A stretch of DNA of 64,000 nt, taken from Patescibacteria group bacterium (lineage in GTDB: Bacteria; Patescibacteriota; Saccharimonadia; UBA4664). The notes below the pieces were generated by a model, which was given only the letters and a program-made list of their open reading frames with translations, was not told the DNA's origin and did no database searches. Positions 7,752 through 51,565 of this stretch are shown one piece after another (within the stretch, counting starts at the first letter, position 1; each line of letters starts with the position of its first letter). Where the stretch lies: assembly GCA_028288925.1 (NCBI GenBank), contig JAQGHG010000012.1:13762-77761 (forward strand), given 5' to 3'. The translations under genes were made by a program, and so were the position numbers.

Positions 7752-7859
7752 CGCCGGGGTATTCGTTGGTTAAAGTAGGGGACCTACGATTACTATCACA
7801 CACCATATCGGCCAACTGGTAAATAGTATGGTTCGGATCTTTTTTGTTACTATGTTGGT

Positions 7860-8213
7860 ATGGATAAAGCCACCGAAGATTCAAAGAAGCGGATTAAGCA
7901 GACAGTGCTTGTCCTGGAAGAGCTGTTGAGTGGCTTGCCGCTCGTTAGTATGAGCAGAAAGTTTAATAACACCAACTTCACCGTAGGAGGGAAAGTCTTT
8001 GCATTCACCAAAAATGAGGGTTTAACACTTAAGCTACCCGCGGAAATGACCGACGCCCTAATCAAGCATGGCCGCGCCGAACGCCTCGTCATGGGCGGCC
8101 GGGCGATGAAGGAGTGGGTAACTATTACTCACACCAACCCCAAAAAATATGAGGCCGACATCGAACTGATTAACGCGGCGATTAAGTTTACGAAAGGGAC
8201 GGATGAGTCATGA
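7860..8213 (+). CDS. MmcQ/YjbR-like small protein (tentative)
   Basis: FTVGGKVFAF…LTLKLP…W pattern resembles the YjbR/TfoX-N fold; the assignment is weak. Confidence 0.4.
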   Translation: MDKATEDSKKRIKQTVLVLEELLSGLPLVSMSRKFNNTNFTVGGKVFAFTKNEGLTLKLPAEMTDALIKHGRAERLVMGGRAMKEWVTITHTNPKKYEADIELINAAIKFTKGTDES

Positions 8214-8614
8214 ATAATAAAATCATCATCGCCATTGTCGCGGGAGTCGTAGTGGTAGGAGGCGCAATCTTCGCGGTCTCCCAGCGCCCGTCCGGTACAC
8301 CGGCGGCTACGCCAAGCCCGGCGCCCAACACTCAGAATGCCCAAGCGGCGGCCACCATTACGTATTCCGCCAATGGGTTCTCACCCGCGACCACAACCAT
8401 TAAGTCCGGCCAGTCGGTGACGTTTAAAAATACCTCGTCCAGCGAAGTCCAGGTTGACTCCGATCCGCATCCCATCCATACCGACAACGAAGATCTAAAC
8501 GTAGGGACTATCGCCCCCGGTCAGAGCAAGACCGTCGTGCTCACCAAGAAAGGCGCCTTCGGCCTTCACAACCACCTTAACCCCGGTAACACGGCCCATA
8601 TTACTATCCAATAG
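8210..8614 (+). CDS. secreted cupredoxin-like domain protein (no Cys ligand)
   Basis: Signal/TM, Pro/Ala/Thr linker, then a plastocyanin-like beta-sandwich pattern (TIKSGQSVTFKN…HN) but no cysteine. Confidence 0.5.
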   Translation: MNNKIIIAIVAGVVVVGGAIFAVSQRPSGTPAATPSPAPNTQNAQAAATITYSANGFSPATTTIKSGQSVTFKNTSSSEVQVDSDPHPIHTDNEDLNVGTIAPGQSKTVVLTKKGAFGLHNHLNPGNTAHITIQ

Positions 8615-8658
8615 CCGGGAAGCGGTTGTATAATGCTTATGTATAGGGAAGGAAATAT

Positions 8659-9423
8659 ATGTTCATTCCGATCACCGCCATCACGACACTTGTAGGCGTT
8701 CTAGTCATGTTTGGCGCCTGGGTCTTTGTCGGCAGCCGCATCCGGCAGGCTCATACGGCAACGCTGCGCCCCGTACTGTTGCTGCACAAATTCTTTTTGC
8801 ATATGGCTATCTTCTTCCTCCTCATGTGGGCGCCGCACCTGTGGATTACGTTTGATCCAATCAATTTTTCCCTGCCTATGGCGATCGGCTATACGTTCGG
8901 CCATATCTTCCTTTACCTGGCGTTTATTGATATCGCCCAGATGACCTGCGTGATCGTGCCGAAGTTGGCATCCAAGGAGCGCTTGGCCACCCTCGTGGGC
9001 TACGCCTTGTGCGTCGTGATTACGACCATTAACGCCATTACCATGATCTGGGGCAAGCAGCCGACGTTTGACTACGCCAACAACGTAACCCTCTTCAACG
9101 CCCACCCGATTGTCGGCGCCTCCATCGGCATCTTGGCTGCCGTCTCGGTGTTACCCGCGGCGGTGCTGTTCATCATCAACGCCTTCAAGAGCCACAGTAC
9201 CCGCCGAGTCCGCTCTTTGCTATTGGGCACGGGCTTCTTCTTGCTCATGACGGCGGGTCCGCTCCACGACGTCGCCCGCACGAGCCAGCTCTACTTGATA
9301 GCCGATATTTTCTCGATGGTTAGCATCGTTCTGGTGGGGATCGGCGTGGTCTACCGCTTGGAGCAAAGCTTGTCGCTATCCAGCCCGGCTTCGGCCAAGG
9401 CGCCGGCCCCCAACGCTATTTAG
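8659..9423 (+). CDS. integral membrane protein (7-8 TM)
   Basis: Hydrophobic throughout; no family recognised. Confidence 0.5.
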   Translation: MFIPITAITTLVGVLVMFGAWVFVGSRIRQAHTATLRPVLLLHKFFLHMAIFFLLMWAPHLWITFDPINFSLPMAIGYTFGHIFLYLAFIDIAQMTCVIVPKLASKERLATLVGYALCVVITTINAITMIWGKQPTFDYANNVTLFNAHPIVGASIGILAAVSVLPAAVLFIINAFKSHSTRRVRSLLLGTGFFLLMTAGPLHDVARTSQLYLIADIFSMVSIVLVGIGVVYRLEQSLSLSSPASAKAPAPNAI

Positions 9424-9427
9424 CGGT

Positions 9428-11090
9428 TCAGAGTTGGTCGATGAGCGTCGAAACCTCGGCCTCGACCACCTTGGCGTGATCGCGCTGGAGCCGGCTAAAC
9501 GGCGGCACCTCCAGGTAAAAGGTAGAGCCATGATTGAGCGTGCTTTTGCACCAGACTCTGCCATTGATCCGCTCGGCCAGCTCGAGGCAAAGATACAGCC
9601 CCAAGCCGGTGCCACCCGTCTCGCGGGTGCGGTAATTCTCCGAGCGGTAAAACTTAGTGAATAAGTGCCGCTGGTCGCCGGCCGAAATACCAATGCCGCT
9701 ATCTTGGATAGCGAAGACCACGCCGCCGTTACGGCCCGGCTCAGCCTTTAGCTGAACGCCGCCTTCCTTTGTGTACTTCAAGGCGTTGCTAATGTAATTT
9801 TGCAAAATTTCATGGATATGGTGTTCGGTAGAGAGTACGCTCGGCGTATCGGGCATCAGGAGCCTGGTAAATGACAGGCCTTTACCTTTGGCCTGCGGCG
9901 TGAAATCCTTCACCAGCTGATCGAGCAACGTCCGGGGATTCACCGGGGCCAACTGTATCGGGATATTGTCATTTTGGGCTTGGGAAAGGGTGGTAAGGTC
10001 CTTTACGATGCCCGCCAAAAAGACAGTGTTGCGGTGAGCTTGGTCTAGCATGGTTGTGATGGGGGGCGAAAAAGACGCCCTGGAAAGGAGCGCGGTCGAG
10101 AGGGCGGCCTCCACGATAGTGAGTGGGGTGCGCAATTCGTGCGAAGCTATGGCGATAAACTCTTCGCGCTGCTGGTCTAGAGACTTTTCTTTCGTAATAT
10201 CATTACAAACGATTATATAGTTGGTGTCTTTGAGATTCTTGATCGGGGTTATGGTAATGTCCAGGTCCAGATCCCGGCCGTCCACGCCGGCCATGGTCAA
10301 GTCGCGCCGACGCTGCGGCGTGGAGCTGTCCTTCAGGATACTCAGAAACTGAACGCGGCCTCGGGCCCGGTGGCGCACCGGCAGCAGGCGGGAGATATCC
10401 CGGCCGTGAAGGTTGCCCTGCGCGCCGGACAGTTCCTGAGCGGCGGCGTTCGAGAGCACCACCCGGCCCTTGGCGTCGACTACCAAAATGGCGTCGTGGA
10501 GACTGTTGACGAGCGCCAGGAGCTGGTCCCGCTCGGTCTGGTTCTCGTCGCTCAGCGACTCAAAGGCCAGACGCTCGTGCCGCTCCACATGTGTCAGGCG
10601 CTCTACCAGCAGGCCGATGGCCAAAAGTATCAGCGCGCTCAGGGCCGCGACGCGCGACGGGCCCAGCACGAGCGGTTGGAAAGGGTGGACTACCGAGATG
10701 CCGGCCACCACTAGAGCCTGGCTCACGAGCACCACGAGCATACCCCGAATGCCAAACCAGTAGGTGGCGGCAATCAGCATCAGAATCAAAAGGCCGGAGT
10801 AGGGGGTGCTGGCTTGGCCTACCAAGAGCAAAAAGATCGCCACGACGACATTATCGAGCGTGAGCATCATCACCCGCGAGGCGTAGAGCCGCGTCCGGAT
10901 CAGGGCGGGCATGTAGCGGCTAAGGTTGTAGAGGGCCGTCAGGACCAAAAATCCATAGACCAGGAGGCTCTGCGGCTGATTTAGCGGAAAGGTTACGAAA
11001 ATAATAACAATCGCCAGCCAACGAATCTGCCGGGTAATCTGCTCATAATCAGCCTCCCGGCGAGCAAGTTCGTGGTGGGCGGTGTGCTTC
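9428..11090 (-). CDS. sensor histidine kinase (multi-TM + PAS + HisKA + HATPase_c)
   Basis: ASHELRTPLT H-box and N/G1/G2 boxes (GGTGLGL). Start set at MKHTAHH (ATG 11088-11090). Confidence 0.85.
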
Positions 11091-11102
11091 ATCGGATAGG
11101 CG

Positions 11103-11513
11103 CTAGTCGGCTGCTTCGGTGGCTGGATTAGGCGGCAAGTTAAGCAGCCGGCGAATGCGCGACACGACATCCGCGATCACGACCTGCGACTTTACGAGAT
11201 AATCATCGGCGCCTAGATCCTTGGCGCGCTGCTGGTCGGAAGGTTGGCTCAAAGCCGACATCACTATAATCTTAATCTTCCGGGTCTCGGTAGTATTGCG
11301 CAATATATCCAGTACATCGAAGCCGTTCAGGCGGGGCATCATGATATCTAGCAGGATAAGCTGGGGCTTAAAATCCTTGGCGGCTTGCAGCGCGGCCTCG
11401 CCACTATCACAGTAGCGGACCTCAAAACCTTCGGCTTCCAAACGCGTCTGATAAACGCTGGCAACTGTCATATCATCCTCAACTAAGAGGATACGGGGTA
11501 AAGCTTGAGTCAT
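11103..11513 (-). CDS. response regulator, receiver domain only
   Basis: LLVEDD…LILLDIMMP…K; no output domain; immediately upstream of the kinase. Confidence 0.85.
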   Translation of the reverse strand: MTQALPRILLVEDDMTVASVYQTRLEAEGFEVRYCDSGEAALQAAKDFKPQLILLDIMMPRLNGFDVLDILRNTTETRKIKIIVMSALSQPSDQQRAKDLGADDYLVKSQVVIADVVSRIRRLLNLPPNPATEAAD

Positions 11514-11596
11514 AAGCGTATTCTAGCACCATCCTGTAAACTTGCCCAAATCATCACGGCCATACTCTTCGTAAAATAACCCCAGGGGATTTTACT

Positions 11597-12349
11597 ATGG
11601 CAAAGAAGAGCATCAAAGACAAAGTAGTCATCATTACGGGTGCCACTTCGGGCATCGGCGAGGCCACCGCCAGAGTCTTGGCCCAGGCTGGCGCCATCGT
11701 CGTCCTGGCCGGCCGGCGGCGGGAACGGCTAGAAAAGCTGCTGGCAGACATCGAAAAGAGCGGGGGACAAGCGCTAGCCGTGCCTACTGACGTCACTAAG
11801 TACGACAGCGTGCGCGGCATGGTAGACGCGGTCCAGCAAAAATATGGCAAAATCGACATATTGTTCAACAACGCCGGCGTCATGCTGCTGGGCCCGGTGA
11901 TAAACGCCGATATCACCGACTGGCAGCGCATGATCGGCACCAACCTCTACGGGCTCATCTGGTGCACCCACGCCGTTCTACCGCAGATGGTTAAGCAGGG
12001 GAGTGGCCACATCGTGCAGACCTCATCGGTGGCCGGCCGCACCGCCAAAGAAGGTAGCGCCGTGTACAACCTCACCAAGTGGGGTGTCAACGGCTTCACC
12101 GAAGGCCTACGGCAAGAGCTCGTGGAGCACAAAATTCGCACCACGCTCATAGAGCCGGGCCTGGTAGCTACGGAGCTGCGCGACCACATCACCCACCAGC
12201 CGTCTAAGCGGCAGGTGAACGAATGGGCCGGTACGGTGCGCCAGCTCCAATCCGAAGACATCGCCGAGGCGGTGCTCTACGCCGTCACCCAGCCCGACCA
12301 TGTCGACGTGAACGAGATCCTTATCCGCCCGACCGACCAGCAAGGGTAG
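11597..12349 (+). CDS. SDR family oxidoreductase
   Basis: TGATSGIGEA glycine motif, NNAG, and S…Y…K catalytic residues. Confidence 0.85.
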   Translation: MAKKSIKDKVVIITGATSGIGEATARVLAQAGAIVVLAGRRRERLEKLLADIEKSGGQALAVPTDVTKYDSVRGMVDAVQQKYGKIDILFNNAGVMLLGPVINADITDWQRMIGTNLYGLIWCTHAVLPQMVKQGSGHIVQTSSVAGRTAKEGSAVYNLTKWGVNGFTEGLRQELVEHKIRTTLIEPGLVATELRDHITHQPSKRQVNEWAGTVRQLQSEDIAEAVLYAVTQPDHVDVNEILIRPTDQQG

Positions 12350-12398
12350 GCCGGCGGGTCAGTTCGGCGTAGCGCGATAACAATTACTACGGCCCGTC

Positions 12399-12887
12399 TC
12401 AGTCTTCGTAGACCTTGCCGCTCAGCCCCTCCAATGCCTTGAGTACGCCTTCGGCGCCGGGATTCACGCCCACCGGCGAAATATAGCTCCAGGCGATAAG
12501 ACCATCCTTGTCAATCACGTACAGGGCACGCTCGGCCTCACCTTCGCTCTCGCGGTAGCTCTGGTAGCGCCGGGCCACTTCGCCTTTAGGGTGGAAGTCG
12601 GCCAACAAAGGGAAACGCAAATTATTCTCGCGGGCGAACGCCAAGTGGCACCACGCGCTATCTACTGATATACCGAGCAATTGCGCGGCATGTTTTTGCA
12701 GCTCGGGGAGGATCTCATTGAATAGCGAGACCTCGCTGCCACAAATAGGGCTGAAGTCCGCCGGGTAAAACATCAAAACTACCGGACGTCCCCGCAGTTC
12801 CTTAAGCGATACATCCTGGTCCGGCGTATCTCGTAGTTTAAAGCCGGGCGCTTCAGCCCCGGATGCTAAAGGGGTGTTCGTACTCAT
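12399..12887 (-). CDS. peroxiredoxin (AhpC/TSA/Bcp family)
   Basis: FYPADFSPIC peroxidatic-Cys motif in a thioredoxin fold. Confidence 0.8.
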   Translation of the reverse strand: MSTNTPLASGAEAPGFKLRDTPDQDVSLKELRGRPVVLMFYPADFSPICGSEVSLFNEILPELQKHAAQLLGISVDSAWCHLAFARENNLRFPLLADFHPKGEVARRYQSYRESEGEAERALYVIDKDGLIAWSYISPVGVNPGAEGVLKALEGLSGKVYED

Positions 12888-12893
12888 AATCCG

Positions 12894-13430
12894 CTAGCTC
12901 CTCATCACCCCGGCCGCGGCATAGACGGCCTCTCGCAGCGCCCCGTACTGGTACCATTGGTCATGCCGGTGGTCATTAACGAAGAACGTCGGTGTGCCGT
13001 TCACGCCGCTGCGCACGCCACTCATAAAGTCTTCGCGCACCCGCCGCTCGGCTTTGCCCGATTCCGTATCGTGGATAAACCTCTCCACGTCCAGTTCCAG
13101 CAACGTCGCGTAAGTAACGAGGTGGTCCGTACCCAGGGCGCCTTGGTGCTCAAACAAGACATCGTGCATGGGCCAAAATGCTCCCTGAAATCCAGCCGCT
13201 TCAGCCGCCAGGGCAGCCCGTAGCGCGTGAGGATGAACTTGAGCCAAAGGAAAGTTACGAAACACAAACCGTAGTTCATCTCCCAATTCTGCTTGCAGCC
13301 GCTTCACAATGACATACGCCTGTCCGCAGTAGGGGCATTCATAATCACCATACTCCAACAGCGTCACGGGCGCGTACGCGCTGCCCTGAGCGTGATCCCT
13401 AACGCCCACCGGCATGACCAATTCACTCAT
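12894..13430 (-). CDS. DsbA-like thiol:disulfide oxidoreductase
   Basis: CPYC active site in a thioredoxin-like fold. Confidence 0.75.
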   Translation of the reverse strand: MSELVMPVGVRDHAQGSAYAPVTLLEYGDYECPYCGQAYVIVKRLQAELGDELRFVFRNFPLAQVHPHALRAALAAEAAGFQGAFWPMHDVLFEHQGALGTDHLVTYATLLELDVERFIHDTESGKAERRVREDFMSGVRSGVNGTPTFFVNDHRHDQWYQYGALREAVYAAAGVMRS

Positions 13431-42518: not shown

Positions 42519-42995
42519 TTACCGCTTACGTATAGTCAAAAGAATAGCAACAGGGAGAACCGACCAGAAAGCAAGCAATAGTACAGCAAGGGCAGTAATC
42601 TCACTAAACGCCGGGACTGAAGCCACACAAGATGAGCCACAATCAAGGTGCGAATATGATTCAATTATATAACTCAGCCCACTTGCGGCTAACCCACTTA
42701 CAGCTGTAATAATTAGAATGAGTTTAACGCCGCGTCCCGTCATAAGGAGGGATCCTAAAAGAGCCGGAAGAATCGACCACCCTAGGAGCGATCGAACAAA
42801 CTCATACCATTGGCGGGGTTGATCTTGTTGAACAGCGCTCAAAGCATCTCGTTGCGGAAAAGGGCCAAAAGTAAATACGACAAACAAAACCAAACAAATT
42901 AGAGAGAACCCAATGAAACCTTGGACAAACTTAGAGTACCTCTTCTCGACCATAGCCGTTATTTTAGCGCCTTCAACGACAACCGGCAACCACAC
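42519..42995 (-). CDS. hypothetical membrane protein
   Basis: 158 aa, 4 TM, low GC. Confidence 0.45.
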   Translation of the reverse strand: MWLPVVVEGAKITAMVEKRYSKFVQGFIGFSLICLVLFVVFTFGPFPQRDALSAVQQDQPRQWYEFVRSLLGWSILPALLGSLLMTGRGVKLILIITAVSGLAASGLSYIIESYSHLDCGSSCVASVPAFSEITALAVLLLAFWSVLPVAILLTIRKR

Positions 42996-43033
42996 GCCTT
43001 CTTACTAGAACTAACTATAATAAACCGTAAGAG

Positions 43034-43358
43034 ATGATATTCAACCAGGAGGATTCATCATCGCCGGGGGTTTTTAGACTGCGATCCTCGGTTCAACCCT
43101 CAAGTATCTTTTAATATCAAGGCGAAGGTCGCTCCAGGAGCCGAGGTCCTCATCAACGAGTACCCACGTTTCTTCAAGATCAAGCCCACGGCCGCGTGCA
43201 AGGCGGGCGGCATTACGTTCGACAAGTCCGACCAGATCTGGATCAACGGTGCCATCCTTCGGCTAAACCAGGTCATATCGAAGGCGGCGCACAAGGCCGG
43301 TGTAACTCCGGTTGATACACATGTATGTATAATATGCTCATGGTTATTCAAACTCTAA
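43034..43358 (+). pseudogene. small gene split by a frameshift at a G5T5 homopolymer (candidate phase-variable gene or pseudogene)
   Basis: An ATG at 43034 opens a 26-codon ORF. A 107-codon ORF (43038..43358) in the next frame has no canonical start. The junction falls in ccgggggttttt at 43066-43075. Confidence 0.3.
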
Positions 43359-43582
43359 ATTATATCTACAATAGCTTTTGGAACCCTATTATCGGGTATA
43401 CCCTACTCGCATCTCTTGTTGGAGGCCTGATACTAGCACTTTATACGGTCGTCATATTCGCAAAAAGAAAGCCCGGCGATAGATCGAAAAAATATCTTAT
43501 ATATTGGTTAATCGCATGCGCGCTGCTCTTATTTAGTTATTTCCAATTCACCCTCATGCTAGGGTCGAGTATCATGTGGTGA
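43325..43582 (+). CDS. small hydrophobic protein (2 TM)
   Basis: 85 aa, low GC, no RBS evident. Confidence 0.3.
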   Translation: MYNMLMVIQTLNYIYNSFWNPIIGYTLLASLVGGLILALYTVVIFAKRKPGDRSKKYLIYWLIACALLLFSYFQFTLMLGSSIMW

Positions 43583-43698
43583 ATTCCGGGGTGCCTATTA
43601 ATTCTTTCTGCGCTAGCGTCGATCGCAAGTGGGCCGAAAGCGACGCGCTGTAGGTGGTAATATACTCGCTTTATACTTACGCTTAAGGAAGGCGTTAA

Positions 43699-43923
43699 AT
43701 GTTTCAGACCGTATACGATCTTTACATAACCCCACTCATGCCGATTATTTGGCCCTCATTACTCGTTCTTGGTCTATTCCTGGCACCATTTGGGTTTATT
43801 TCCAGCTTTGTCGTTAAGAACCGGAAAGCTAAAACGATTCTGCGGATTGCAGGTGCTGCGGGCCTCGGCTGTCTCCTTGTGCTGGGCATTCTATTTGTCA
43901 TCAACTTCAATGTACCTTGGTAG
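43699..43923 (+). CDS. small hydrophobic protein (2 TM)
   Basis: RBS AAGGAAGG before the ATG; 74 aa. Confidence 0.4.
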   Translation: MFQTVYDLYITPLMPIIWPSLLVLGLFLAPFGFISSFVVKNRKAKTILRIAGAAGLGCLLVLGILFVINFNVPW

Positions 43924-44061
43924 GGGCAACTAACCATTTTGAAAAACGTACGACTACTACCGAGTTTAATTAGAACTACTGTTTTTATAACCCCCGTATT
44001 GCTGGGCCTGGTTCTTGTAAAAACCGGGCGATAGCTTCTCTGGATGTACTTTTCTTAACGC

Positions 44062-44451
44062 TTAACTCGCGCTCTTCGCCAACAGCGCCTTCACCCGCTC
44101 GGCCACCTGCTTCGGTGTCATCTCGGCCTTCACGATGTAGTCGTCGGCGGCCATCTTGTAGACCTTGGTAGCGGTTTCGGTGTCGCCCATGTTAGTCAGC
44201 ACCACCACTTTGGCATCGCGCCCGGCCGGCTGGCTGCGCAGGCGCTGGAGCATGTCCAGGCCGTTCATATTTGGCATCATTAAATCTAGCAAAATAATAT
44301 CGGGCGTATACGTGTCTATTAATTCTAGCCCGCTCACACCATCCGGAGCGGTCGCTACATCGTAGCCCTCGTTCTCAAACTTGGTCCGATACATTTGTAC
44401 GATCGCGATATCATCTTCGATGATGGCGACTTTGACTTTTTTAGTGCTCAT
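44062..44451 (-). CDS. response regulator, receiver domain only (orphan)
   Basis: VAIIEDD…IILLDLMMPNMNG…K; no adjacent kinase. Confidence 0.85.
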   Translation of the reverse strand: MSTKKVKVAIIEDDIAIVQMYRTKFENEGYDVATAPDGVSGLELIDTYTPDIILLDLMMPNMNGLDMLQRLRSQPAGRDAKVVVLTNMGDTETATKVYKMAADDYIVKAEMTPKQVAERVKALLAKSAS

Positions 44452-44729
44452 GCTCCAAGTATAGACACGAGTTTCCAGATAGCGCAAGCATATATTGTGA
44501 GTCATGCTCTGTAATTATCAGGTACATGAGTGAGTATTCAGATCCGAGTTCAAAATGTCAAGAATGTTCGACAATAGTGGGGTCATTATCGTCAAAAAGC
44601 TCGGCAATCCCGAACGATTGCTTATCGCGTCCCATCTTCAACAGCACAGAATTGTACCGCAGTACTTTCCAAATATTCTCTTCGGTTAGCTCCGATATTC
44701 CTCGAGATCGTTCACATCCACCTTGCGAC

Positions 44730-45845
44730 CTACTCTGCGAACTCTTTCATCATGGTGCGTAAAATCTTGAGTCCCTTCACTAGGGTAGTGTGCTTGGTAG
44801 CAAAAGCAATGCGGATGTAATCCTGACGTTTCGAGAAAGCCCGCGACGGCAGCACAATTAGGCTGCGCTTGGCCGCTTCCTCGCAAAACTCCAAATCCGT
44901 CATCCCGGACGGTAGCTGCACAAACGCGTAAAAAGCGCCGTGGGAGCCATAGATATCGAACATCGGCTCTAGATAGCGCAGTACCATATCGCGCTTCGCC
45001 CGATATTTTTTAATCAGACGCTGCGGGCTATGGGACAGCGCCGCCAGAGCCGCTTTCTCGGCAATCGAAGAATTGGAGAACACCACATACTGCTGTAGTT
45101 GATTAACCGCCTGGATAAACTCTTCGGGCCCGGCCAAGTAACCCACCCGCCAGCCCGTCATAGCATATGCCTTGGAAAACCCATTAAGCGTAACCGTGTT
45201 TTTATATACGCTTCCAATACTGAAATGCGGGGTGTTATAGGAGAAATACTCGTAAATCTCGTCAGACAAAATGGTGATATTGTGCTCTTTGGCCATTCGG
45301 GCGATTCGGCGCAACTCACGCTCCGGATAAACCGCCCCCGAGGGATTGTTAGGAGAATTAATTAGCAAGACCTTGGTCTTGGGTGTAATATGCTGCTCCA
45401 CCAATCGGGCCGTTAGCTGAAAACTTGGGTACGTATCAATCGCCACCGGCACCGCGCCGAGCATCCGCGCCAGATCAAAATAGGGAGGGAAATACGGATC
45501 AGGTATTAGAACCTCATCACCCGGGTCAAGCAAAGCTAGATAACTCAGCAAAATTCCGGTAGTAACACCAGGCGTTACCGTTACCAGATCTGGCGTTACT
45601 TTAATTTTATTTTCGCGGGTAAGCTTCTCCGCTATTGCCGCGCGGAGCTCAAAGATGCCGTTAGAGGGTGTATAACGGGTAAAATCCTGGGAAATTGCCC
45701 GAATCCCGGCGGCCTTAATATAGTCCGGAGTCGCATCTTCGGGAAATCCAATGCTTAAGTCGATAGGGTCGGGAATTTCACGCACCCGGCTAAATGCTTT
45801 ACGTATATGGCTACTATCGAATTGGGCGATGCGCTTGGCGATCAT
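44730..45845 (-). CDS. pyridoxal-phosphate-dependent aminotransferase class I/II
   Basis: NSPNNPSG motif and the GFSKAYAMTGWRVGY lysine motif. Confidence 0.85.
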   Translation of the reverse strand: MIAKRIAQFDSSHIRKAFSRVREIPDPIDLSIGFPEDATPDYIKAAGIRAISQDFTRYTPSNGIFELRAAIAEKLTRENKIKVTPDLVTVTPGVTTGILLSYLALLDPGDEVLIPDPYFPPYFDLARMLGAVPVAIDTYPSFQLTARLVEQHITPKTKVLLINSPNNPSGAVYPERELRRIARMAKEHNITILSDEIYEYFSYNTPHFSIGSVYKNTVTLNGFSKAYAMTGWRVGYLAGPEEFIQAVNQLQQYVVFSNSSIAEKAALAALSHSPQRLIKKYRAKRDMVLRYLEPMFDIYGSHGAFYAFVQLPSGMTDLEFCEEAAKRSLIVLPSRAFSKRQDYIRIAFATKHTTLVKGLKILRTMMKEFAE

Positions 45846-45965
45846 TCATTTACTATAGCCTAATTTCCAGACCCGAACCAAGCGTCTATTCGCGGTATGT
45901 GGGAGATAATCTAACTTATTAGGCTATTTTTTGTTATTATGCCTATTGTAATAGCCATACTATAA

Positions 45966-47516
45966 ATGACAGTTTCGTCAATCAAGGTTAGCAAAACCCC
46001 CTCCTTTCCGGCGTTATCAGCTCAAGCCCACCCGCTTGAGCTTCTCCGGCATCTTCGGCATGAGCCGGAGGAATACTGGCTGGCTCGGGGCGCCGAAAAG
46101 GCCATTAAGCTATTCCATGACGCGGCGGATCACGTGCCAGCCTACCGGAAATATCTCAAGGCTCAAGGCTTTAATCCCGCACTTGTGCATGATATTGGCG
46201 ATTTGGTACTTATCCCAACCACGAGCAAAGCCGGTTACCTACGGCGTTATTCGCGCCCAGAGCTATGCTGGAACGGTGATTTTCGTTCCGTCCGTTGGAC
46301 TATCTCGACCACATCTGGCTCCACCGGCGAGCCTTTTTACTTTCCCCGCACCGCCGAGCAAGACAAGCAATATGCCCTTTTGGCGGAGCTTTATTTGCGC
46401 ACAAATTTCCGTATTCATGAGCGCAGTACACTCTACATTGTGGCGTTTCCTATGGGTGCTTGGATCGGTGGACTGTTTACGTATGAAGCCGTCCGCCGGG
46501 TAGGGGAGAGTGGTGATTATGCGCTGAGTATCATCACTCCCGGGATCAATAAGTTGGAAGTAATTAAGGCGGTGCAAAATATCGGACATGATTTTGACCA
46601 GGTAATCATCGGGTCGTATGCGCCCTTTCTCAAAGACATCATCGATGACGGCCGGCGAGCTGGGCTAAACTGGGCCGATTACAATCTGGGCTTCATTTTT
46701 TCGGCCGAAGGTTTCAGCGAAACCTTCCGCGATTATGTTGCGGAAAAGACCGGTTTAACCAATATCTATACCGACACACTCAACCATTACGGCACAGTCG
46801 ATCTCGGCACCATGGCTTACGAAACACCGGTGTCGATTCTGATCCGGCGCATGGCCTTGGACCGGCCGGCTCTCTATGAAACTATCTTCAGGCAGACGGC
46901 CAAATTGCCCACCCTGGCACAATATCTGCCCGAGCAATTTTACTTTGAAGAAAGCAATGGTCAGCTCTACTGCACGGCCTCAAGCGGTTTGCCGCTCGTG
47001 CGTTACGATCTTCAAGATCTCGGCGGTGTCATCACGTACGGGCAAATGGAGCGGCACTTTGCCGACCATGGCCTAGACCTAAACGCCGAGATCCAGGCTG
47101 CCGGTCTGACCGACCTCAGCTGGAACCTGCCATTTGTCTACGTCCATGAGCGCAGTGATTTCTCGGTCTCGTTCTTTGCTTTCCAAATCCATCCTCAAAC
47201 CGTACGAAATGCCTTGGCGGGCGGCCAGCTCGCCGAAGAACTCACAGGCAAATTTACCATGACCGTGGAATACGATCTCGAAGGCCAGCAGCATCTGCAC
47301 ACCCATGTAGAGCTTAAAATCGACACGCCCGAGTCGCCCGAGCTTCACGACCGGGTGCAGCTGGCTATTGTGGAGCGGCTGCTGGCCGAAAGTTCAGAGT
47401 ATCGCCGTACCTTTGAAGAATACGGCGAGCGCGTCTATCCGCTCTTAACCTTCTGGCCCTATGAGGATCCTATCTACTTTAAACCGGGGACGAAACAGAA
47501 ATGGACGATAAAATAA
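45966..47516 (+). CDS. adenylate-forming enzyme, PaaK/coenzyme-F390-synthetase/CapK-like (ANL superfamily)
   Basis: TSGSTGEP AMP-binding P-loop; 516 aa; overlaps the next gene by 16 nt. Confidence 0.7.
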   Translation: MTVSSIKVSKTPSFPALSAQAHPLELLRHLRHEPEEYWLARGAEKAIKLFHDAADHVPAYRKYLKAQGFNPALVHDIGDLVLIPTTSKAGYLRRYSRPELCWNGDFRSVRWTISTTSGSTGEPFYFPRTAEQDKQYALLAELYLRTNFRIHERSTLYIVAFPMGAWIGGLFTYEAVRRVGESGDYALSIITPGINKLEVIKAVQNIGHDFDQVIIGSYAPFLKDIIDDGRRAGLNWADYNLGFIFSAEGFSETFRDYVAEKTGLTNIYTDTLNHYGTVDLGTMAYETPVSILIRRMALDRPALYETIFRQTAKLPTLAQYLPEQFYFEESNGQLYCTASSGLPLVRYDLQDLGGVITYGQMERHFADHGLDLNAEIQAAGLTDLSWNLPFVYVHERSDFSVSFFAFQIHPQTVRNALAGGQLAEELTGKFTMTVEYDLEGQQHLHTHVELKIDTPESPELHDRVQLAIVERLLAESSEYRRTFEEYGERVYPLLTFWPYEDPIYFKPGTKQKWTIK

Positions 47517-48679
47517 TGAAAGGAATACACAACAACATGACCGCTCCCATAATTCTGCTTGAAGGCCACTACACAGAGACCGAGCTAAGCCAACTCAAAA
47601 ACGAAAAAATCTGGAATTTCAAAGACATATATCAACCTCAACTCACTGAGCTCTTTGAAATCTTAAACGCCCAGCTGATCGGTATGCCGGAGTTTGAGGG
47701 CAAGCTCAAAGAGTTTATCGCCGAGAGATCAGTCCCCAAGTCGGAACTAAGAGGGAATTACGTCTATTACCCGTGGTCGGGTCTTTTGCTCCACATGGTC
47801 AACGAAGAGGAATTAAATATCCTTCGCACAAACCGTACAAATAACCTGATTACCCGCGACGAGCAAAAGAAACTGGCCAAGTTTAGCGCCGGAGTAGCCG
47901 GCTTGTCGTTCGGTAACGGCATTGCTCTCTCTCTAGTGTATAGTGGCATCGCTAACACCATTAAAATCGCCGACCGCGACATCTTCGAAACCACTAACCT
48001 GAACCGAGTTCGAGTCGGCCTTCCGAGCGTGAATGAATCTAAGCCGGTCGTAACTGCCCGGGAGATCTATGAAATCAATCCTTATGCCGACATTTCCATA
48101 TATTCCGATGGGATAACCACCGAAAACATTGATTCCTTCATTGGGGGAGACACAAAGCTAAACGTTGTTTTCGATGTGGTCGACAGCTTCGCCATGAAAG
48201 TACGGTTGCGGCTGGCAGCCAAGCAGGCCAAAGTTCCAGTGATTATGCTCACCAGCCTGGAAGATAGCATTCTCGTTGACGTGGAGCGCTTCGATCTCGA
48301 TCCTTCTGCCGAAATATTTCATGGATTACTCGGCGGCGTGACAGATGACCTATTGACAAAAGAAATGACCGAGCAGGACAAGGCCAAATATGCAATGGCA
48401 ATTGTCGGTCCAGAACACGTTTCCTACCGTAATCTCTTGTCGCTCTCGAACATTGGTAAAAGCCTGGTTTCGCGCCCCCACCTGTACGGAACAGTCAGCA
48501 TTGTTTGCGGCTTAGCCTCTTATATTGTAAAAAGAATCGCCCTCGGCGAAGACATGCCGAGCATGCGAACCCATGTGGCATTCAATGAAGTACTCGGTAT
48601 TTTGCCTAATAAAGACGACACGCCTCAGGCTAGAGAAACCATATTGTCCCAATTGATGCGGAATTCAGCCAAAAATTAG
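47501..48679 (+). CDS. ThiF/MoeB/E1-like adenylyltransferase with about 125-aa N-terminal extension
   Basis: Gly-rich loop AGLSFGNG, DRDIFETTNLNRV (matches DxDxVxxSNLNRQ) and VFDVVDS; no CxxC motifs. Confidence 0.7.
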   Translation: MDDKIMKGIHNNMTAPIILLEGHYTETELSQLKNEKIWNFKDIYQPQLTELFEILNAQLIGMPEFEGKLKEFIAERSVPKSELRGNYVYYPWSGLLLHMVNEEELNILRTNRTNNLITRDEQKKLAKFSAGVAGLSFGNGIALSLVYSGIANTIKIADRDIFETTNLNRVRVGLPSVNESKPVVTAREIYEINPYADISIYSDGITTENIDSFIGGDTKLNVVFDVVDSFAMKVRLRLAAKQAKVPVIMLTSLEDSILVDVERFDLDPSAEIFHGLLGGVTDDLLTKEMTEQDKAKYAMAIVGPEHVSYRNLLSLSNIGKSLVSRPHLYGTVSIVCGLASYIVKRIALGEDMPSMRTHVAFNEVLGILPNKDDTPQARETILSQLMRNSAKN

Positions 48680-48733
48680 TTCCCATGCTGCCCCCTGATA
48701 GCGCTTCTGCTATAGTTAAAGCATAAGCAAGTT

Positions 48734-50902
48734 GTGAGCATGATCGAACTTATTGGAGTTGTAGTAAGCATTTTAGCCACTCTTATGGTAGGTGGTCTTG
48801 CGTATCTCAAAAACAAAAATAGCGCGACAAACCGGCTATTTGGGCTATTGTGTGTAGCGATGGCTGGTTGGACGGGCTTCAACTATCTGTCCGTCCACCT
48901 CAGCTTAGGTCAGCTTAATCTCATCCGCTTAATTATGTTCTTTGTTGTGTTGATGAACACGTCCTTTTTCTTTTTTGTTCAAAACTTTCCCTCTCCAAAA
49001 ATGAAAATCAATCGCTGGGCTGTCATTGGTATCATCTACGCCACCCTTGTGTTAGCCGATGCGCTTTCGCCTTTTCTGTTCTCTAGGCTGTTGGTCGAGA
49101 ACGGGAGCGTTTCGCCGGTGCCCGGGCCGGGGATCATTCTGTTTCTCATTCATGCGGTTATTTTTGCCGGTGGAGGAGTAGTCTGGCTCATTCGCCGTTA
49201 TTGGTTGAGCGCCGGATTGCTACGCGCCCAGCTGCGGTATGTCCTCATCGGTACGGTGCTTTTTATGACCCTCCTACCCTTGACCAATTTCATCCTGCCG
49301 CTGGCGGCTCATATATCATCACTAATTATTCTAAGCCCGTTCTATACAGCTTTTTTTGCCTTTGCCACCGGCTACGCTGTGCTTCGTCACCGCCTGTTTG
49401 ATGTACGGGCGATTGTCGCTCGGTCACTTACCTACGCGCTTCTCCTTCTGACCTTGGCCGGGCTGTTTGGGCTCATCTTCCTGAGTACGCAAAAACTTCT
49501 CATCCACGGCGTAGTTGGTAGCGGTGGTCAAAGCATCTTAAGTGCGACTCTGGCCATTTCTTTGGCTCTCACCTTCCAGCCATTGCGCCGGTTCTTCGAG
49601 CGCATCACCAATCGGGTATTTTATCGTGACAACTACGACTCTCAAGTAGTGCTCAGCAAATTCTCCAAAGTCCTCGTCTCCGAGCTCGAGCTCAACCGCA
49701 TCCTCAAAAAAACCCTCACTCAGCTCTGCGAAGACCTGCATATTCAATTTGGCCAGATCATCGTCTTCAATAACGACCGCGTCTACCGCATCGGCCACTA
49801 TGGCGAGCTGCCCAAGCGCCTGATGATCGCGCCGGAGCTGGCCAAATTCAACAAGCCCATGATTGTGGCCGACGAACTCGACGGGGGGGAACGCAAATCC
49901 ATCATGGACAAGCACAGTATCCGAGTGGCGCTCAACCTCCGCACGCGCGAAGAGTTCGTGGGCTACTTGCTGCTCGGCGACAAGCTTTCAGGTGATATTT
50001 ATTCGGGTCAGGACCTCGAGCTACTCGAGATTGTCGGCAAGGAGCTGGCCGTGGCCATTCTCAACGCCAAGGCCTACGCCGAGATCCAGGATTTCAACCT
50101 CACGCTCCAGGCGCGGGTGGACCACGCCACCAATCGCTTGCGCGTCGCCAACCGCCACCTCAAGGAACTCGACCATGCCAAGGACGAGTTCATCAGCATG
50201 GCCTCGCACCAGTTGCGCACGCCGCTTACTACCATCAAGGGCTACCTCTCCATGCTGCTCGAAGGCGACGCCGGCAAACTCACCAAACCTCAGAAAGAGT
50301 TTGTGGATTACGCTTTTGGTTCCAGCGAGCGCATGGTCAACCTCATCTCGGACCTGCTCAATGTGTCGCGCCTCTCGGCCGGCCGGTTCTTGATACAGAC
50401 CAAACCCACCGATATGGTGCAAATGATCGCCGACGAAGTCCGCCAGCTCGGCTCGCACGCCAAGGCCAAAGGTATTCAGCTGGTCTTCGACAAGCCCGCC
50501 GAGCCCCTGCCGCCCGCCGAGATCGACGACAACAAAACCCGCCAGGTCATCATGAACTTCATCGACAACGCCATCTATTACACGCAAAAAGGCGAGGTGC
50601 GCGTCACCCTTGAGCAATCCGGCGATTCGGTGCGTCTGGAAGTGCGCGACACCGGCATCGGCGTGCCCGAGAAAGCCAAGCGCAAGCTCTTCAGCAAATT
50701 CTTCCGCGCCGACAACGCCCAGATCGTCCGCCCCGACGGCACTGGCCTTGGCCTCTACCTGGCCAAACGTGTAATCGAGGATCAGGGTGGTACAATAATC
50801 TTCAGCAGCATAGAAGGCAAAGGTTCGACCTTTGGTTTCGAGCTGCCCTTTAAGCACCCCAAGCCCAAACACGAGGACACCCATGGCCGATCCAAAACCT
50901 GA
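48734..50902 (+). CDS. sensor histidine kinase with 7TM receptor-like N-terminus
   Basis: Paralog of 24417..26579; ASHQLRTPLT, GTGLGL. Confidence 0.85.
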   Translation: MSMIELIGVVVSILATLMVGGLAYLKNKNSATNRLFGLLCVAMAGWTGFNYLSVHLSLGQLNLIRLIMFFVVLMNTSFFFFVQNFPSPKMKINRWAVIGIIYATLVLADALSPFLFSRLLVENGSVSPVPGPGIILFLIHAVIFAGGGVVWLIRRYWLSAGLLRAQLRYVLIGTVLFMTLLPLTNFILPLAAHISSLIILSPFYTAFFAFATGYAVLRHRLFDVRAIVARSLTYALLLLTLAGLFGLIFLSTQKLLIHGVVGSGGQSILSATLAISLALTFQPLRRFFERITNRVFYRDNYDSQVVLSKFSKVLVSELELNRILKKTLTQLCEDLHIQFGQIIVFNNDRVYRIGHYGELPKRLMIAPELAKFNKPMIVADELDGGERKSIMDKHSIRVALNLRTREEFVGYLLLGDKLSGDIYSGQDLELLEIVGKELAVAILNAKAYAEIQDFNLTLQARVDHATNRLRVANRHLKELDHAKDEFISMASHQLRTPLTTIKGYLSMLLEGDAGKLTKPQKEFVDYAFGSSERMVNLISDLLNVSRLSAGRFLIQTKPTDMVQMIADEVRQLGSHAKAKGIQLVFDKPAEPLPPAEIDDNKTRQVIMNFIDNAIYYTQKGEVRVTLEQSGDSVRLEVRDTGIGVPEKAKRKLFSKFFRADNAQIVRPDGTGLGLYLAKRVIEDQGGTIIFSSIEGKGSTFGFELPFKHPKPKHEDTHGRSKT

Positions 50903-51293
50903 TAACAAACTCATCCTCATCGCCGAAGACGATCCGTTCATCTCGCGCATGTACCAGATCAAGCTCGAAAGCGGCGGCTACCGCGTGATCGTCAAGAATA
51001 ATGGCCGCGATGCCTTCGAAGCCATCAAGGGCGAGCACCCGGATCTGGCCGTCCTCGACATCAACATGCCTGAGCTTTCGGGCCTAGAAGTGCTGGCCGC
51101 GCTCCAAACTGACGGGTTCGACTTCGATTCCATGCCCGTCATCGTACTCACCAACTCCTCCGAGCTGTCCGATCGCAACAAGGCCCATTCCTTCGGCGCC
51201 GAATACCTGGTGAAGGCCGAGCTCACCCCGCGCGAGGTCCTCAACCTCATCGGCGCCAAGCTTAACCCCGCTCCCGAAGCCGAAAATGCCTAA
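50883..51293 (+). CDS. response regulator, receiver domain only
   Basis: LIAEDD…AVLDINMP…K; 20-nt overlap with the kinase. Confidence 0.85.
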   Translation: MADPKPDNKLILIAEDDPFISRMYQIKLESGGYRVIVKNNGRDAFEAIKGEHPDLAVLDINMPELSGLEVLAALQTDGFDFDSMPVIVLTNSSELSDRNKAHSFGAEYLVKAELTPREVLNLIGAKLNPAPEAENA

Positions 51294-51474
51294 ATTTATC
51301 GAACCAATCCTGGTGGCGGCGCTGGTATTTACCGGTACCTTCTTGGGACTGCGCGCGATCGAGTGGCTCTACCATCGCCTGCGCCACACGCCGGATTGGT
51401 CGCCACACTGGGGATCGTGGCTGTTCGCGCTGCTGCTGGCGGTGTACGCGCTCGTCAACAACCTCGGCCGTTAA
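51286..51474 (+). CDS. small membrane protein (62 aa, 2 TM)
   Basis: 8-nt overlap with the response-regulator stop. Confidence 0.35.
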   Translation: MPKFIEPILVAALVFTGTFLGLRAIEWLYHRLRHTPDWSPHWGSWLFALLLAVYALVNNLGR

Positions 51475-51485
51475 TAATTGACTTA

Positions 51486-51565
51486 TACCGAAGACTCCAT
51501 CCCGGCGGGACATGGAGCTGCCAGGACCCGTGCGATTCGAAAACGGCCAAGATCCGTTCCCTACG
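51486..51565. repeat. repeat element copy F (inverted orientation, rearranged)
   Basis: ataccgaagact…gctgccaggacccgtg…cctacgg; the deacetylase stop (cta at 51561-63) lies inside cctacgg. Confidence 0.5.

Follow-up and report, generated by a model that had tools for sequence, protein, structure and literature searches.

What would a PaaK-fold adenylating ligase and a ThiF/E1-like adenylating enzyme make together, when their genes overlap in the genome of a CPR bacterium? The question is raised by a locus of a Patescibacteria group bacterium (Saccharimonadia), studied within a stretch of 64,000 nucleotides that is referred to below as the window. The two genes, A and B, and their surroundings are as follows.

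44062..44505, minus strand: stand-alone receiver-domain response regulator, 147 aa, without output domain (Pfam Response_reg, E=9e-26)
44730..45845, minus strand: class I/II PLP aminotransferase (AT), 371 aa, divergent from A (Pfam Aminotran_1_2, E=1e-64)
45846..45965, no strand: divergent AT/A intergenic (promoter) region, 120 nt
45966..47516, plus strand: A, PaaK-fold ANL adenylating ligase, 516 aa (weak NCBIfam matches and predicted fold)
47501..48679, plus strand: B, ThiF/E1-like adenylating cyclase, homolog of the N-terminal half of Rv1355c/TrzS, start probably at 47516
48734..50902, plus strand: 7TM-receptor histidine kinase, 722 aa (Pfam HisKA_7TM, HisKA and HATPase_c)
50832..51293, plus strand: second stand-alone receiver-domain response regulator, longest ORF 153 aa (Pfam Response_reg, E=1e-20, residues 28-138)

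An ORF check of the window gave a 516-aa product for A, in which the TSGSTGEP motif announced by the sequence-only reading is present, within TTSGSTGEP at residues 115-123, and a 392-aa product for B, with ADRDIFETTNLNRV. Both are genuine genes, since homologs number in the hundreds for each, at 55-78% identity for A and 46-80% for B. The two ORFs had been said to overlap by 16 nt. They do overlap, but by this length only when B begins at ATG 47501; an alternative in-frame start, ATG 47516, overlaps the stop codon of A as TAATG. Because of this arrangement, and because most B homologs are 376-382 aa long (B itself is about 387-392 aa, depending on its start), the overlap may be of 1 nt, and B probably starts at 47516. 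A and B are tightly coupled whichever start is used. The divergent aminotransferase and the kinase/regulator pair on either side were correctly recognised. The kinase gene starts 54 nt after the stop codon of B, and its 3' part is overlapped by the second regulator gene, whose start probably lies inside the longest ORF. As for the "low-GC patch" of about 47%, GC is indeed below that of the window (0.571), but the A+B span is at 0.507 and the figure fits only B (0.473); the lower-GC patch, of GC 0.49, extends over about 42.5-49.5 kb. No Rfam match to a known RNA element was found in 44000-51500.

The cluster was compared over 81 CPR loci, and over a wider set of 87 CPR loci (1.29 Mb). It is present in Saccharimonadia, Microgenomatia and Paceibacteria, and in Doudna-, Magasanik-, Lipton-, Adler-, Kaiser- and Nomurabacteria. 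A lies beside B in about 79 of the 81 loci (78 of 80 in one count), and in some genomes the two are fused in either order (A-B, B-A), so that the pair is a genuine functional unit. AADH-A, AADH-A-B, B-FDO, FDO-ABH and B-lyase fusions were seen as well. The partners are all small-molecule enzymes, namely amino-acid dehydrogenase (AADH), ammonia-lyase, flavin oxidase (FDO) and α/β-hydrolase (ABH). Neighbourhood conservation, proposed earlier as a check, is thus confirmed for A/B, and AT and the kinase/regulator genes share the conserved neighbourhood. No paper describing the A+B pairing was found in a literature search, in line with the initial remark that no named system with it is known. The 27-42-aa ORFs in the AT/A spacer (45846..45965) are not kept among related loci, and the length of this spacer ranges from 52 to 148 nt across the closest loci. 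More generally, no conserved small ORF, precursor or Ubl, was found near the cluster among the 81 loci. The suggested search for small peptide ORFs near A/B was therefore negative, and the statement that no E2, Ubl or precursor peptide is evident stands.

Enzyme A belongs to a family of 742 representatives at E<1e-30, in which TSGSTG, HYGTVD, RYDLxD, ERSD and a C-terminal GxKQKW are invariant. A Pfam search with A returned zero matches, and PF04443 is therefore unmatched. Weak matches to PaaK/F390/FlxY NCBIfam models were obtained (E ~1e-7), with scores about 20-fold below the cutoffs of the PaaK equivalog models (27.6 bits for TIGR02155, cutoff 646.3; 31 bits for NF041878, cutoff 700). The predicted structure (AF2 pLDDT 81) matched PaaK1 (2y27) with a Foldseek E=7e-21 and a TM-score of 0.62 (query) or 0.74 (target), at 17% identity. 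The proposal of a PaaK/CapK-like ANL enzyme was thus sustained by the fold and the weak NCBIfam matches, but not by PF04443. Like members of the PaaK subfamily (FlxY of flexirubin, BT_0428, 2-hydroxyisobutyryl-CoA ligase, ClxA), A has the common fold and the ANL core motifs, but it is only 15-18% identical to them, its length exceeds theirs by about 80 aa, and it has an obligate link to a ThiF-like cyclase. Public records label A homologs "phenylacetate-CoA ligase". No paa genes were found near A in the window or in the 87 related loci, so A is not a canonical PaaK residing in a paa cluster. PaaK-fold ligases with non-CoA acceptors exist, as exemplified by ClxA.

For enzyme B, the best model was NF005901, the "Rv1355c family" (282 bits over residues 12-382, E 9e-84), the next-best ThiF family scoring 67 bits. 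As 282 bits is below the equivalog cutoff of 476, the function of B need not equal that of TrzS (Rv1355c). By BLASTP, window B is 33% identical over 282 aa to a Rhodococcus Rv1355c-family protein (E=8e-47), in an alignment that begins at the YVYYPW motif, and 82-89% of the length of CPR B-FDO fusions is covered by alignments with annotated Mycobacterium and Rhodococcus proteins of this family. B opens with a domain of about 95 aa whose topology is winged-helix-like, followed by an E1 Rossmann core and a C-terminal helical part. The core begins at the LRTNR helix, around residue 102, and Pfam ThiF at 115; the N-terminal extension, taken at first to be 125 aa long and uncharacterised, is therefore of some 95-100 aa, and is covered by the Rv1355c-family HMM (from residue 12) and by the BLASTP alignment. 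The extension does match a known E1-like protein, Rv1355c ("MoeY"), but the latter is a secondary-metabolic oxazolone synthetase and not a housekeeping E1.

The lack of a CxxC zinc motif in B was confirmed. Window B has a single Cys, which is not conserved, nor is any other Cys across the B family. Among 73 CPR B sequences, R112, G134/S136/G138, D160, N166-L-N168-R169, K181 and D228 are at least 95% conserved. D228 (window numbering) falls in the motif that holds D217 of TrzS, the two being equated by motif position and not by direct alignment to M. smegmatis TrzS; the D217A mutation kills the cyclase activity of TrzS (PMC12856293). MoeB, ThiF and SAMP-E1 models gave 24-55 bits with B (cutoffs 159-450).

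Three unrelated deaminating enzymes alternate beside A. AT orthologs adjoin it in 37 of the 81 loci, an ELFV amino-acid dehydrogenase (AADH) replaces AT in 29, and a FlxA/TAL-like aromatic ammonia-lyase fills the slot in further lineages. This alternation suggests that the acyl donor derives from an amino acid, in which case AT would supply a 2-oxo acid. The 2-oxo acid and the aryl-acrylic acid expected from a lyase are different donors, so that the argument rests on logic and not on identical chemistry. AT itself has generic Asp/aromatic-type NCBIfam matches, all below cutoff, and might be a housekeeping enzyme kept nearby by Saccharimonadia synteny.

A nitroreductase-superfamily flavin oxidase (FDO) is encoded in 59 of the 81 loci (215-253 bits against the Acg-family model NF047509, cutoff 199), and is fused to B in seven cases. 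No tblastn match to FDO was found in the 64-kb window. FDO is missing from the nine loci of the window B clade, its loss being monophyletic, and this clade carries N113T and Q327H at positions invariant in FDO-linked B; the chemistry of the window may therefore differ. A TrzA-like protein or ThiF-linked GNAT gave no tblastn match at E<=1 in the window and the 87 CPR loci, and no acyltransferase was found among the recurrent neighbour families. A methyltransferase sometimes joins the cluster, for instance in CPR loci L084 and L087.

The reading that we favour, with a probability of roughly 60%, is that a variant of the oxazolone/N-acyl-(dehydro)amino-acid pathway (OxzAB, TyzACB, TrzAS), ligase-dependent and CPR-wide, has A and B at its core. 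The findings behind it are the homologies, the fact that the genes stay linked and in places fuse, catalytic residues that are conserved, and the lack of an acyltransferase, Ubl or precursor gene. Among solved structures, the closest is AclA (9egb). One of the nearest systems is TrzA/TrzS (Rv1356c/Rv1355c), the N-acyl tryptazolone pathway of M. tuberculosis and relatives (Kleetz et al., J Biol Chem 2025, PMC12856293), in which TrzS, a ThiF-like cyclase plus FDO, converts N-acyl-Trp into an oxazolone by ATP-dependent cyclisation and O2-dependent desaturation (PMC12856293). B is homologous to the cyclase half of TrzS, including the YYPW motif just before the Rossmann core and the adenylation residues, although their identity is only about 30%. 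In most CPR relatives, the FDO adjacent or fused to B recreates the 722-aa TrzS architecture, whereas in the window the cyclase stands alone as a protein and the locus has no FDO. Signalling genes adjoin both systems, c-di-GMP enzymes in M. tuberculosis and a two-component system in CPR. In place of the TrzA-type acyl-CoA N-acyltransferase, CPR loci have the PaaK-fold ATP-dependent ligase, and the deaminating enzyme, the α/β-hydrolase and the 7TM kinase are features of the CPR cluster.

The same logic, an N-acyl aromatic amino acid submitted to ATP-dependent ThiF-type cyclisation and flavin-dependent desaturation, holds for the OxzA/OxzB oxazolone synthetase of Pseudoalteromonas rubra (de Rond, Asay and Moore, bioRxiv 10.1101/2020.06.11.147165) and for TyzA/TyzB/TyzC of M. 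tuberculosis (Grigg et al., J Biol Chem 2023, PMC10404671), OxzB and TyzB/TyzC also cyclising and desaturating to oxazolones. TyzB and TyzC are separate proteins, as are B and FDO in many CPR loci. The acyl donor is a fatty acyl-CoA in these systems, whereas in CPR it would be a deaminated amino acid activated by the ANL ligase. Clusters for N-acyl dehydrotyrosines (stieleriacines, thalassotalic and kyonggic acids) combine NasY, ThiF, a nitroreductase and a methyltransferase (Commun Chem 2025, PMC12479983). As in CPR, a ThiF cyclase and a nitroreductase-type desaturase stand beside an amide-forming enzyme, sometimes with a methyltransferase. N-acyl dehydroamino acids with an opened ring may be the end products, and the CPR α/β-hydrolase would then have a task to fulfil. 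However, the amide is made there by acyl transfer (N-acyl amino acid synthase) and not by an adenylating ligase as proposed for CPR, and no linked sensor kinase is reported. A known pairing, FlxA/FlxY (tyrosine ammonia-lyase and PaaK-like ligase), parallels the CPR variants with a lyase and A.

The pathway that we propose would run as follows; its substrates and product, amide formation by A, the sequence of steps and the part played by the kinase are all inferred. AT would strip the amino group from an amino acid, probably aromatic, to give a carboxylic acid, a task taken over elsewhere by the ELFV dehydrogenase or the aromatic ammonia-lyase; the product would be a 2-oxo acid, or an aryl-acrylic acid where the lyase acts. 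A would adenylate this acid and condense it with a second amino acid, through the amino group of the latter, so that an N-acyl amino acid is formed. B would then adenylate the free carboxylate of this intermediate, and attack by the amide oxygen would yield a 5(4H)-oxazolone. Desaturation of the product by an Acg/TyzC-type FDO would follow in most CPR lineages, and the α/β-hydrolase and/or the methyltransferase may tailor it. For the window subclade, whose locus is without FDO, a saturated oxazolone or a derivative is predicted. The co-operonic 7TM kinase and the receiver-only regulators would be tied to the pathway, the kinase possibly as receptor of the product. A would thus be an ATP-dependent N-acyl-amino-acid synthetase that occupies the slot of the missing acyl-CoA N-acyltransferase, because the carboxylate that B needs must be free, unlike that of an acyl-CoA, and because no TrzA-like/GNAT partner was found and the ANL motifs of A are complete.

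Other explanations differ in what they make of A, of B or of both. CPR genomes are poor in acyl-CoA metabolism. The same oxazolone pathway could nevertheless use A as an ordinary aryl-acid:CoA ligase (PaaK/FlxY-like), with the acyltransferase encoded elsewhere in the genome. Judged by sequence and fold, the characterised proteins nearest to A are indeed CoA ligases (PaaK, BT_0428, HCL, FlxY), and every characterised oxazolone system uses acyl-CoA and an acyltransferase. This is unlikely all the same, given the missing acyltransferase partner, the free carboxylate that B needs, and the A-B and B-A single-polypeptide fusions, which suggest that the product of A is the substrate of B. Alternatively, within the subclade that has no FDO and to which the window belongs, B could make no final oxazolone but turn the N-acyl amino acid derived from A into an acyl-adenylate or a transient azlactone, which would be passed to another nucleophile such as an envelope or peptidoglycan amine, a lipid or a protein; the system would then be one of metabolite conjugation. 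Saturated azlactones are reactive acyl donors, the loss of FDO is accompanied by fixed substitutions in B, and the Saccharimonadia cluster lies beside murD, murI and a murL-like gene. But other CPR classes do not show this mur adjacency, neither a transferase nor an acceptor gene is conserved, the saturated cyclised intermediate was detectable in the TrzS work, and FDO-less ThiF + GNAT pairs are found in Streptomyces too; we regard such a transfer as quite improbable.

The sequence-only reading had itself leaned towards Ubl-type activation, an MccB-like peptide or nucleotide conjugate, or protein conjugation; B would then adenylate a protein or peptide C-terminus, and A would add or activate a second moiety. 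TcdA (tRNA ct6A dehydratase), MccB and PaaA do follow the same outline as proposed for B, carboxylate adenylation and intramolecular attack without a Ubl thioester, and TcdA forms an oxazolone ring as well. However, their substrates are tRNA or ribosomal peptides, and the CPR locus offers no tRNA-binding or precursor-peptide context; their similarity to B is confined to the Rossmann core (E ~1e-5 to 1e-12), MccB and PaaA being at E ~1e-5 by sequence versus 9e-84 for the TrzS family. With no small ORF kept in 81 loci, no E2, JAB or transporter genes, neither CxxC nor a conserved Cys in the B family, fusion partners that act on small molecules, and an N-terminal region common to TrzS-family enzymes, which do the same, this idea is very unlikely. 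A housekeeping or catabolic pair, A as phenylacetate-CoA ligase and B as a MoeB/ThiF/TcdA-type cofactor or tRNA-modification enzyme, would agree with public annotations, which for some B homologs read "tRNA A37 threonylcarbamoyladenosine dehydratase" or "molybdopterin/thiamine biosynthesis adenylyltransferase", and with TcdA being the best PDB match of B by sequence (phmmer E=1.6e-5, Rossmann core only). It is already disfavoured, to the point of being highly improbable: A scores 28-31 bits versus PaaK cutoffs of 646-700, and B 32.4 bits for TcdA (NF011696, cutoff 304), 32 for MoeB (266) and 55 for ThiF (159); no paa, moa or thi genes are nearby; and the obligate A-B linkage and the fusions are left unexplained.

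It was only between 2020 and 2025 that oxazolone and N-acyl-dehydroamino-acid pathways came to light, the bacteria concerned being Proteobacteria, Actinomycetota and Planctomycetota. OxzB homologs are reported from Proteobacteria and Tyz/Trz from Actinomycetota (bioRxiv 10.1101/2020.06.11.147165; PMC10404671; PMC12856293), and none of the papers covered here mentions CPR bacteria. The ligase-dependent variant would place a related pathway across the major CPR classes, organisms of minimal metabolism for which very few specialised metabolites or signals are known. It departs from the known systems in three testable respects: the ATP-dependent PaaK-fold ligase in place of an acyl-CoA acyltransferase; a donor apparently drawn from a deaminated amino acid, which would suit organisms without fatty-acid synthesis; and a 7TM sensor kinase in the operon. 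It also provides functional hypotheses for two large families annotated "phenylacetate-CoA ligase", "hypothetical protein" or "tRNA threonylcarbamoyladenosine dehydratase".

The physiological role of oxazolones is acknowledged in the literature as an open question, for which the co-operonic 7TM kinase gives a concrete handle, as a sensor that may be tied to the pathway. More tentatively, and with considerable doubt, the cluster could be a CPR-wide cell-cell or symbiont-host signalling circuit, in which the deaminase, A, B and sometimes FDO would make from two scavenged amino acids a "pseudo-dipeptide" oxazolone or N-acyl-(dehydro)amino acid, the ligand of the kinase; the receiver-only regulators may then act, for example, on pili or attachment, and not on transcription. 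If so, oxazolones would gain a physiological function, and much of Patescibacteria would have a signalling chemistry in common. The adjacent kinase may also regulate the pathway instead of sensing its product. It is present in 65 of the 81 loci and in every complete sampled distant context, and in 54 loci it follows the last biosynthetic gene directly on the same strand (median gap 9 nt), its flanking synteny varying between CPR classes. The "HK> RR>" order of the window recurs in L001, L002, L005 and others. The receiver-only regulator family is found in 43 of the 81 loci, typically as "RR< AT< A>" or "RR< AADH> A>", and the regulator at 44062..44505 marks the upstream edge of the conserved cluster.

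Gene A, which encodes a PaaK-fold adenylating ligase of the ANL superfamily, and gene B, which encodes a ThiF/E1-like enzyme, lie in the window among the following genes.

Genes of the A/B pair and its immediate neighbourhood
44062..44505, - strand: second receiver-only regulator, upstream
44730..45845, - strand: class I/II aminotransferase (AT), divergent
45966..47516, + strand: A, 516 aa, containing TTSGSTGEP
47501..48679, + strand: B, 392 aa, containing ADRDIFETTNLNRV
48734..50902: 7TM histidine kinase, starting 54 nt 3' of B
50832..51293: receiver-only regulator, 3' of the kinase

The coordinates of A and B proposed in the sequence-only reading were recovered, together with the neighbours that it had named (divergent aminotransferase, 7TM kinase and regulator). 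The 16-nt overlap of the two genes holds only if B starts at ATG 47501; an alternative in-frame ATG at 47516 forms a TAATG overlap with the TAA stop of A, and B homologs are mostly 376-382 aa long. Since both possible starts overlap A, the genes are coupled under either. GC content is 0.507 over the A-B span and 0.473 for B alone, versus 0.571 for the window. Exact database matches of the pair carry locus tags JWN01_575/576, and the nearest relatives of both proteins are from other Saccharimonadia (Saccharimonadales). No known RNA element was recognised when 44000-51500 was scanned against Rfam. Scans for promoter-like sites (13 found, 7.5±2.4 expected) and for terminators (none between the genes) were judged uninformative.

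B contains a Pfam ThiF domain (residues 115-249). It scored 282 bits against NF005901, the "Rv1355c family protein" model, residues 12-382 aligning with profile positions 9-356 of 722, whereas all other ThiF, MoeB, TcdA and E1 models gave at most 67 bits. An annotated Rv1355c-family protein of Rhodococcus, whose locus has the trzAS layout and an adjacent GGDEF gene, is 33% identical to it (E=8e-47), the alignment beginning at a YVYYPW motif in the N-terminal domain. Residues R112, GxSxG (134-138), D160, NLNR (166-169), K181 and D228 are conserved in the family, so that all adenylation residues are kept; neither a conserved Cys nor a CxxC motif was found in it. B is a homolog of the TrzS-type cyclases with intact catalytic residues, and is probably a small-molecule cyclase like them. 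An apparent second ThiF paralog, "B2", proved to be a nitroreductase-family flavin oxidase of the Acg/TyzC type (FDO), drawn into the B cluster by B-FDO fusions.

TrzS (Rv1355c) converts N-acyl-tryptophan, made by the acyl-CoA N-acyltransferase TrzA (Rv1356c), to N-acyl tryptazolone by ATP-dependent cyclisation followed by O2-dependent desaturation, and its D217A mutant loses cyclisation (PMC12856293). OxzA/OxzB of Pseudoalteromonas and TyzA/TyzB/TyzC of M. tuberculosis follow the same logic, as would, by inference, the clusters of NasY, ThiF and nitroreductase, with or without a methyltransferase, for N-acyl dehydrotyrosines.

Expected Pfam matches were obtained for one member of the pair only: B has its ThiF domain, and A had no Pfam match at all. 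Among NCBIfam models, A gave only weak matches to PaaK, F390 synthetase and FlxY (E from 1e-7 to 1e-3, about 20-fold below the cutoffs). Its AlphaFold model (pLDDT 81) adopts the PaaK fold, the match to 2y27 reaching E=7e-21 and TM 0.62/0.74 at 17% identity; BT_0428, 2-hydroxyisobutyryl-CoA ligase and ClxA were further structural matches. An exhaustive HMM search (E<1e-30) collected 742 representatives of the family, throughout which the ANL core motifs and a C-terminal GxKQKW are invariant.

A scan with the A profile, using one genome per species, gave 80 loci, all of which look like CPR bacteria (the ultrasmall Patescibacteria) although several bear automatic "Gammaproteobacteria" labels. 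B is found no more than 4 kb away from A in 78 of the 80, usually directly downstream. Neighbouring ORFs were clustered, domains were then separated, and components were counted on 81 loci, window included.

Components of the cluster among 81 loci
A: 81
B: 76-79
7TM histidine kinase: 65
Acg/TyzC-type flavin oxidoreductase (FDO): 59
receiver-only regulators: 43
class I aminotransferase (AT): 37
ELFV amino-acid dehydrogenase (AADH): 29
α/β-hydrolase (ABH): 18

The FDO scored 215-253 bits on NF047509 (cutoff 199). B-FDO fusions of 722-761 aa have the full Rv1355c architecture (377 bits on NF005901, profile positions 23-646). In alignments with annotated members of the Rv1355c family from Mycobacterium and Rhodococcus, they are about 29-30% identical over 82-89% of their length. 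The HMM search of the A family also gave A-B, B-A, AADH-A and AADH-A-B (1242 aa) fusions; another A-B protein (P0069), six FDO-ABH fusions and one B-lyase fusion were found besides. From the set AADH-A, A-B, B-FDO, FDO-ABH and B-lyase, it follows that each enzyme is fused with its successor in one genome or more. In distant contexts the third type of gene beside A encodes MIO-type aromatic ammonia-lyases or aminomutases, whose best match was the flexirubin tyrosine ammonia-lyase FlxA (562 bits), sometimes with a UbiE-like methyltransferase alongside. In 54 loci the kinase gene comes immediately after the last biosynthetic gene, in the same orientation and at a median distance of 9 nt, and the genes flanking the cluster vary among CPR classes. 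A, B, the FDO, the hydrolase and the deaminating enzyme thus form one unit, and the kinase is co-operonic with it. The view that A and B are a genuine, unnamed functional unit is borne out by their linkage and fusions, and no description of the pair was found in the literature searched.

We propose, with a probability of about 0.6, that the cluster specifies a ligase-dependent pathway of the oxazolone type. The aminotransferase, replaced in other lineages by the dehydrogenase or lyase, would convert an amino acid, probably aromatic, to a 2-oxo or aryl-acrylic acid. A would adenylate this deaminated acid and join it by an amide bond to a second amino acid; B would then adenylate the free carboxylate of the resulting N-acyl amino acid, and the oxazolone ring would close. 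Where present, the FDO would desaturate the product, with tailoring by the hydrolase or methyltransferase. The window system would thus work like the oxazolone synthetase systems, from which the CPR cluster differs in lacking an acyl-CoA acyltransferase, and the window additionally in lacking an FDO. Neither a TrzA-like nor a GNAT acyltransferase turned up in a search of the window and 87 CPR loci. To our knowledge CPR bacteria have no fatty-acid synthesis, so that an ATP-activated, amino-acid-derived acyl donor would be sensible in place of a fatty acyl-CoA. FlxA/FlxY offer a precedent for an aromatic ammonia-lyase paired with a PaaK-like ligase. That the 7TM kinase senses the product is a tentative and rather doubtful suggestion.

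We infer that A is an amide-forming ligase and not a CoA ligase, because the substrate of B must retain a free carboxylate, because A/B fusions occur in both orders, and because the acyltransferase is absent from the loci searched; it is unlikely that A makes a CoA thioester for an acyltransferase encoded at an unlinked site. Conjugation of the Ubl, RiPP or MccB type, the logic suggested by the sequence-only reading, calls for partner genes that are absent. The search for small peptides in 45846-45965 and 48680-48733, extended to the 81 loci, gave no conserved small ORF, and therefore no Ubl or precursor peptide: recurrent "peptides" were only translated tRNA genes, and the similarity of orf35 merely reflected its overlap with the AT coding sequence. 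With no conserved Cys, scores far below thresholds and fusion partners of a contrary nature, this explanation is very improbable. Housekeeping functions of the PaaK, MoeB, ThiF or TcdA kind, against which the same four points speak, are more improbable still.

The window B groups with those of eight other loci (L002, L021, L031, L039, L044, L048, L062 and L076). All nine lack an FDO, none being found within the 64-kb window, and wherever the contig is long enough they share the order AT (divergent), A, B, kinase. Five substitutions are fixed in B of this clade at invariant or near-invariant positions of the FDO-linked proteins (N113T, Q327H, V137F, E226V and G254E), N113 and Q327 being 100% conserved in the latter. 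From the FDO absence and these substitutions, the predicted product of the window is a saturated oxazolone or a derivative thereof. Another possibility is an FDO gene at an unlinked site of the genome. There is also a small chance that B of this clade activates an N-acyl amino acid for transfer onto another acceptor.

The literature searched described no ligase-dependent form, no CPR member and no sensor-kinase link of the oxazolone pathway, and no paper tying CPR to oxazolones or ThiF. Nothing was found in it on AclA (PDB 9egb), and a Saccharibacteria Tn-seq paper does not mention the cluster genes.

Related genes were seen in two actinomycetes. A plasmid of Streptomyces sp. NBC_01426 (6878-8652) encodes a stand-alone B-like ThiF protein (WP_329448365, 390 aa, N-terminal domain present) whose gene shares 4 nt with a GNAT gene (WP_329448366), with no FDO nearby. 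The pair is analogous to A and B of the window, so minimal modules of acylating enzyme and cyclase exist elsewhere. In cultured Nonomuraea gerenzanensis (NZ_LT559118.1, 6699-10347), a full-length A homolog (34% identity) has no B or FDO nearby and is therefore uninformative on the A-B pairing. Genes for a kinase (HisKA_3) and a response regulator (LuxR type) immediately precede it, with a hybrid kinase near, so the link of the A family to two-component systems may extend outside CPR.

A 62-aa hydrophobic ORF (MPKFIEPILVAALVF...HRLRHTPDWSPHWGSWLFALL; 51286-51474, + strand) just 3' of the downstream response regulator is kept in locus L005 (14162-14347), and may be a small membrane protein of the cluster. 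At 42519-43923, where the window has its lowest GC content (0.455), a series of short ORFs encoding strongly hydrophobic proteins (158, 85 and 74 aa), none with a Pfam match, lies just upstream of the response regulator of the cluster.

In L051, L061 and L077, a FAD-dependent aromatic-ring monooxygenase of 409-412 aa (PF01494; VioC/UbiH-like matches) is inserted between AT and A, which fits an aromatic substrate hydroxylated in those lineages. The cluster of a complete Saccharibacteria genome (CP064992.1, about 6000-13000) looks fragmented (AT 193 aa, B 295 aa, FDO 251 aa, kinase split into 291 + 426 aa), suggesting pseudogenisation in this lineage or sequencing frameshifts. Several TPA_asm MAGs with the cluster (among L004, L013, L020, L028, L034, L038, L045, L057, L058 and L064) are recorded as "uncultured Gammaproteobacteria" or "Polyangiaceae"; in gene content, and in a chromosome of 0.94 Mb (OZ246401.1), they resemble CPR, and the public labels are probably wrong. 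A link to peptidoglycan, suggested by the upstream murD, murI and murL-like genes, was discarded as lineage-specific Saccharimonadia synteny. In L037, L046, L047, L050 and L063, the MurL-like gene lies upstream of the cluster beside murD, sometimes with murI; it scored 363 bits on NF041275 (UDP-MurNAc-L-Ala-L-Glu epimerase), below the cutoff of 700, and hints at a MurD2/MurL-type route to peptidoglycan D-Glu in some CPR bacteria.
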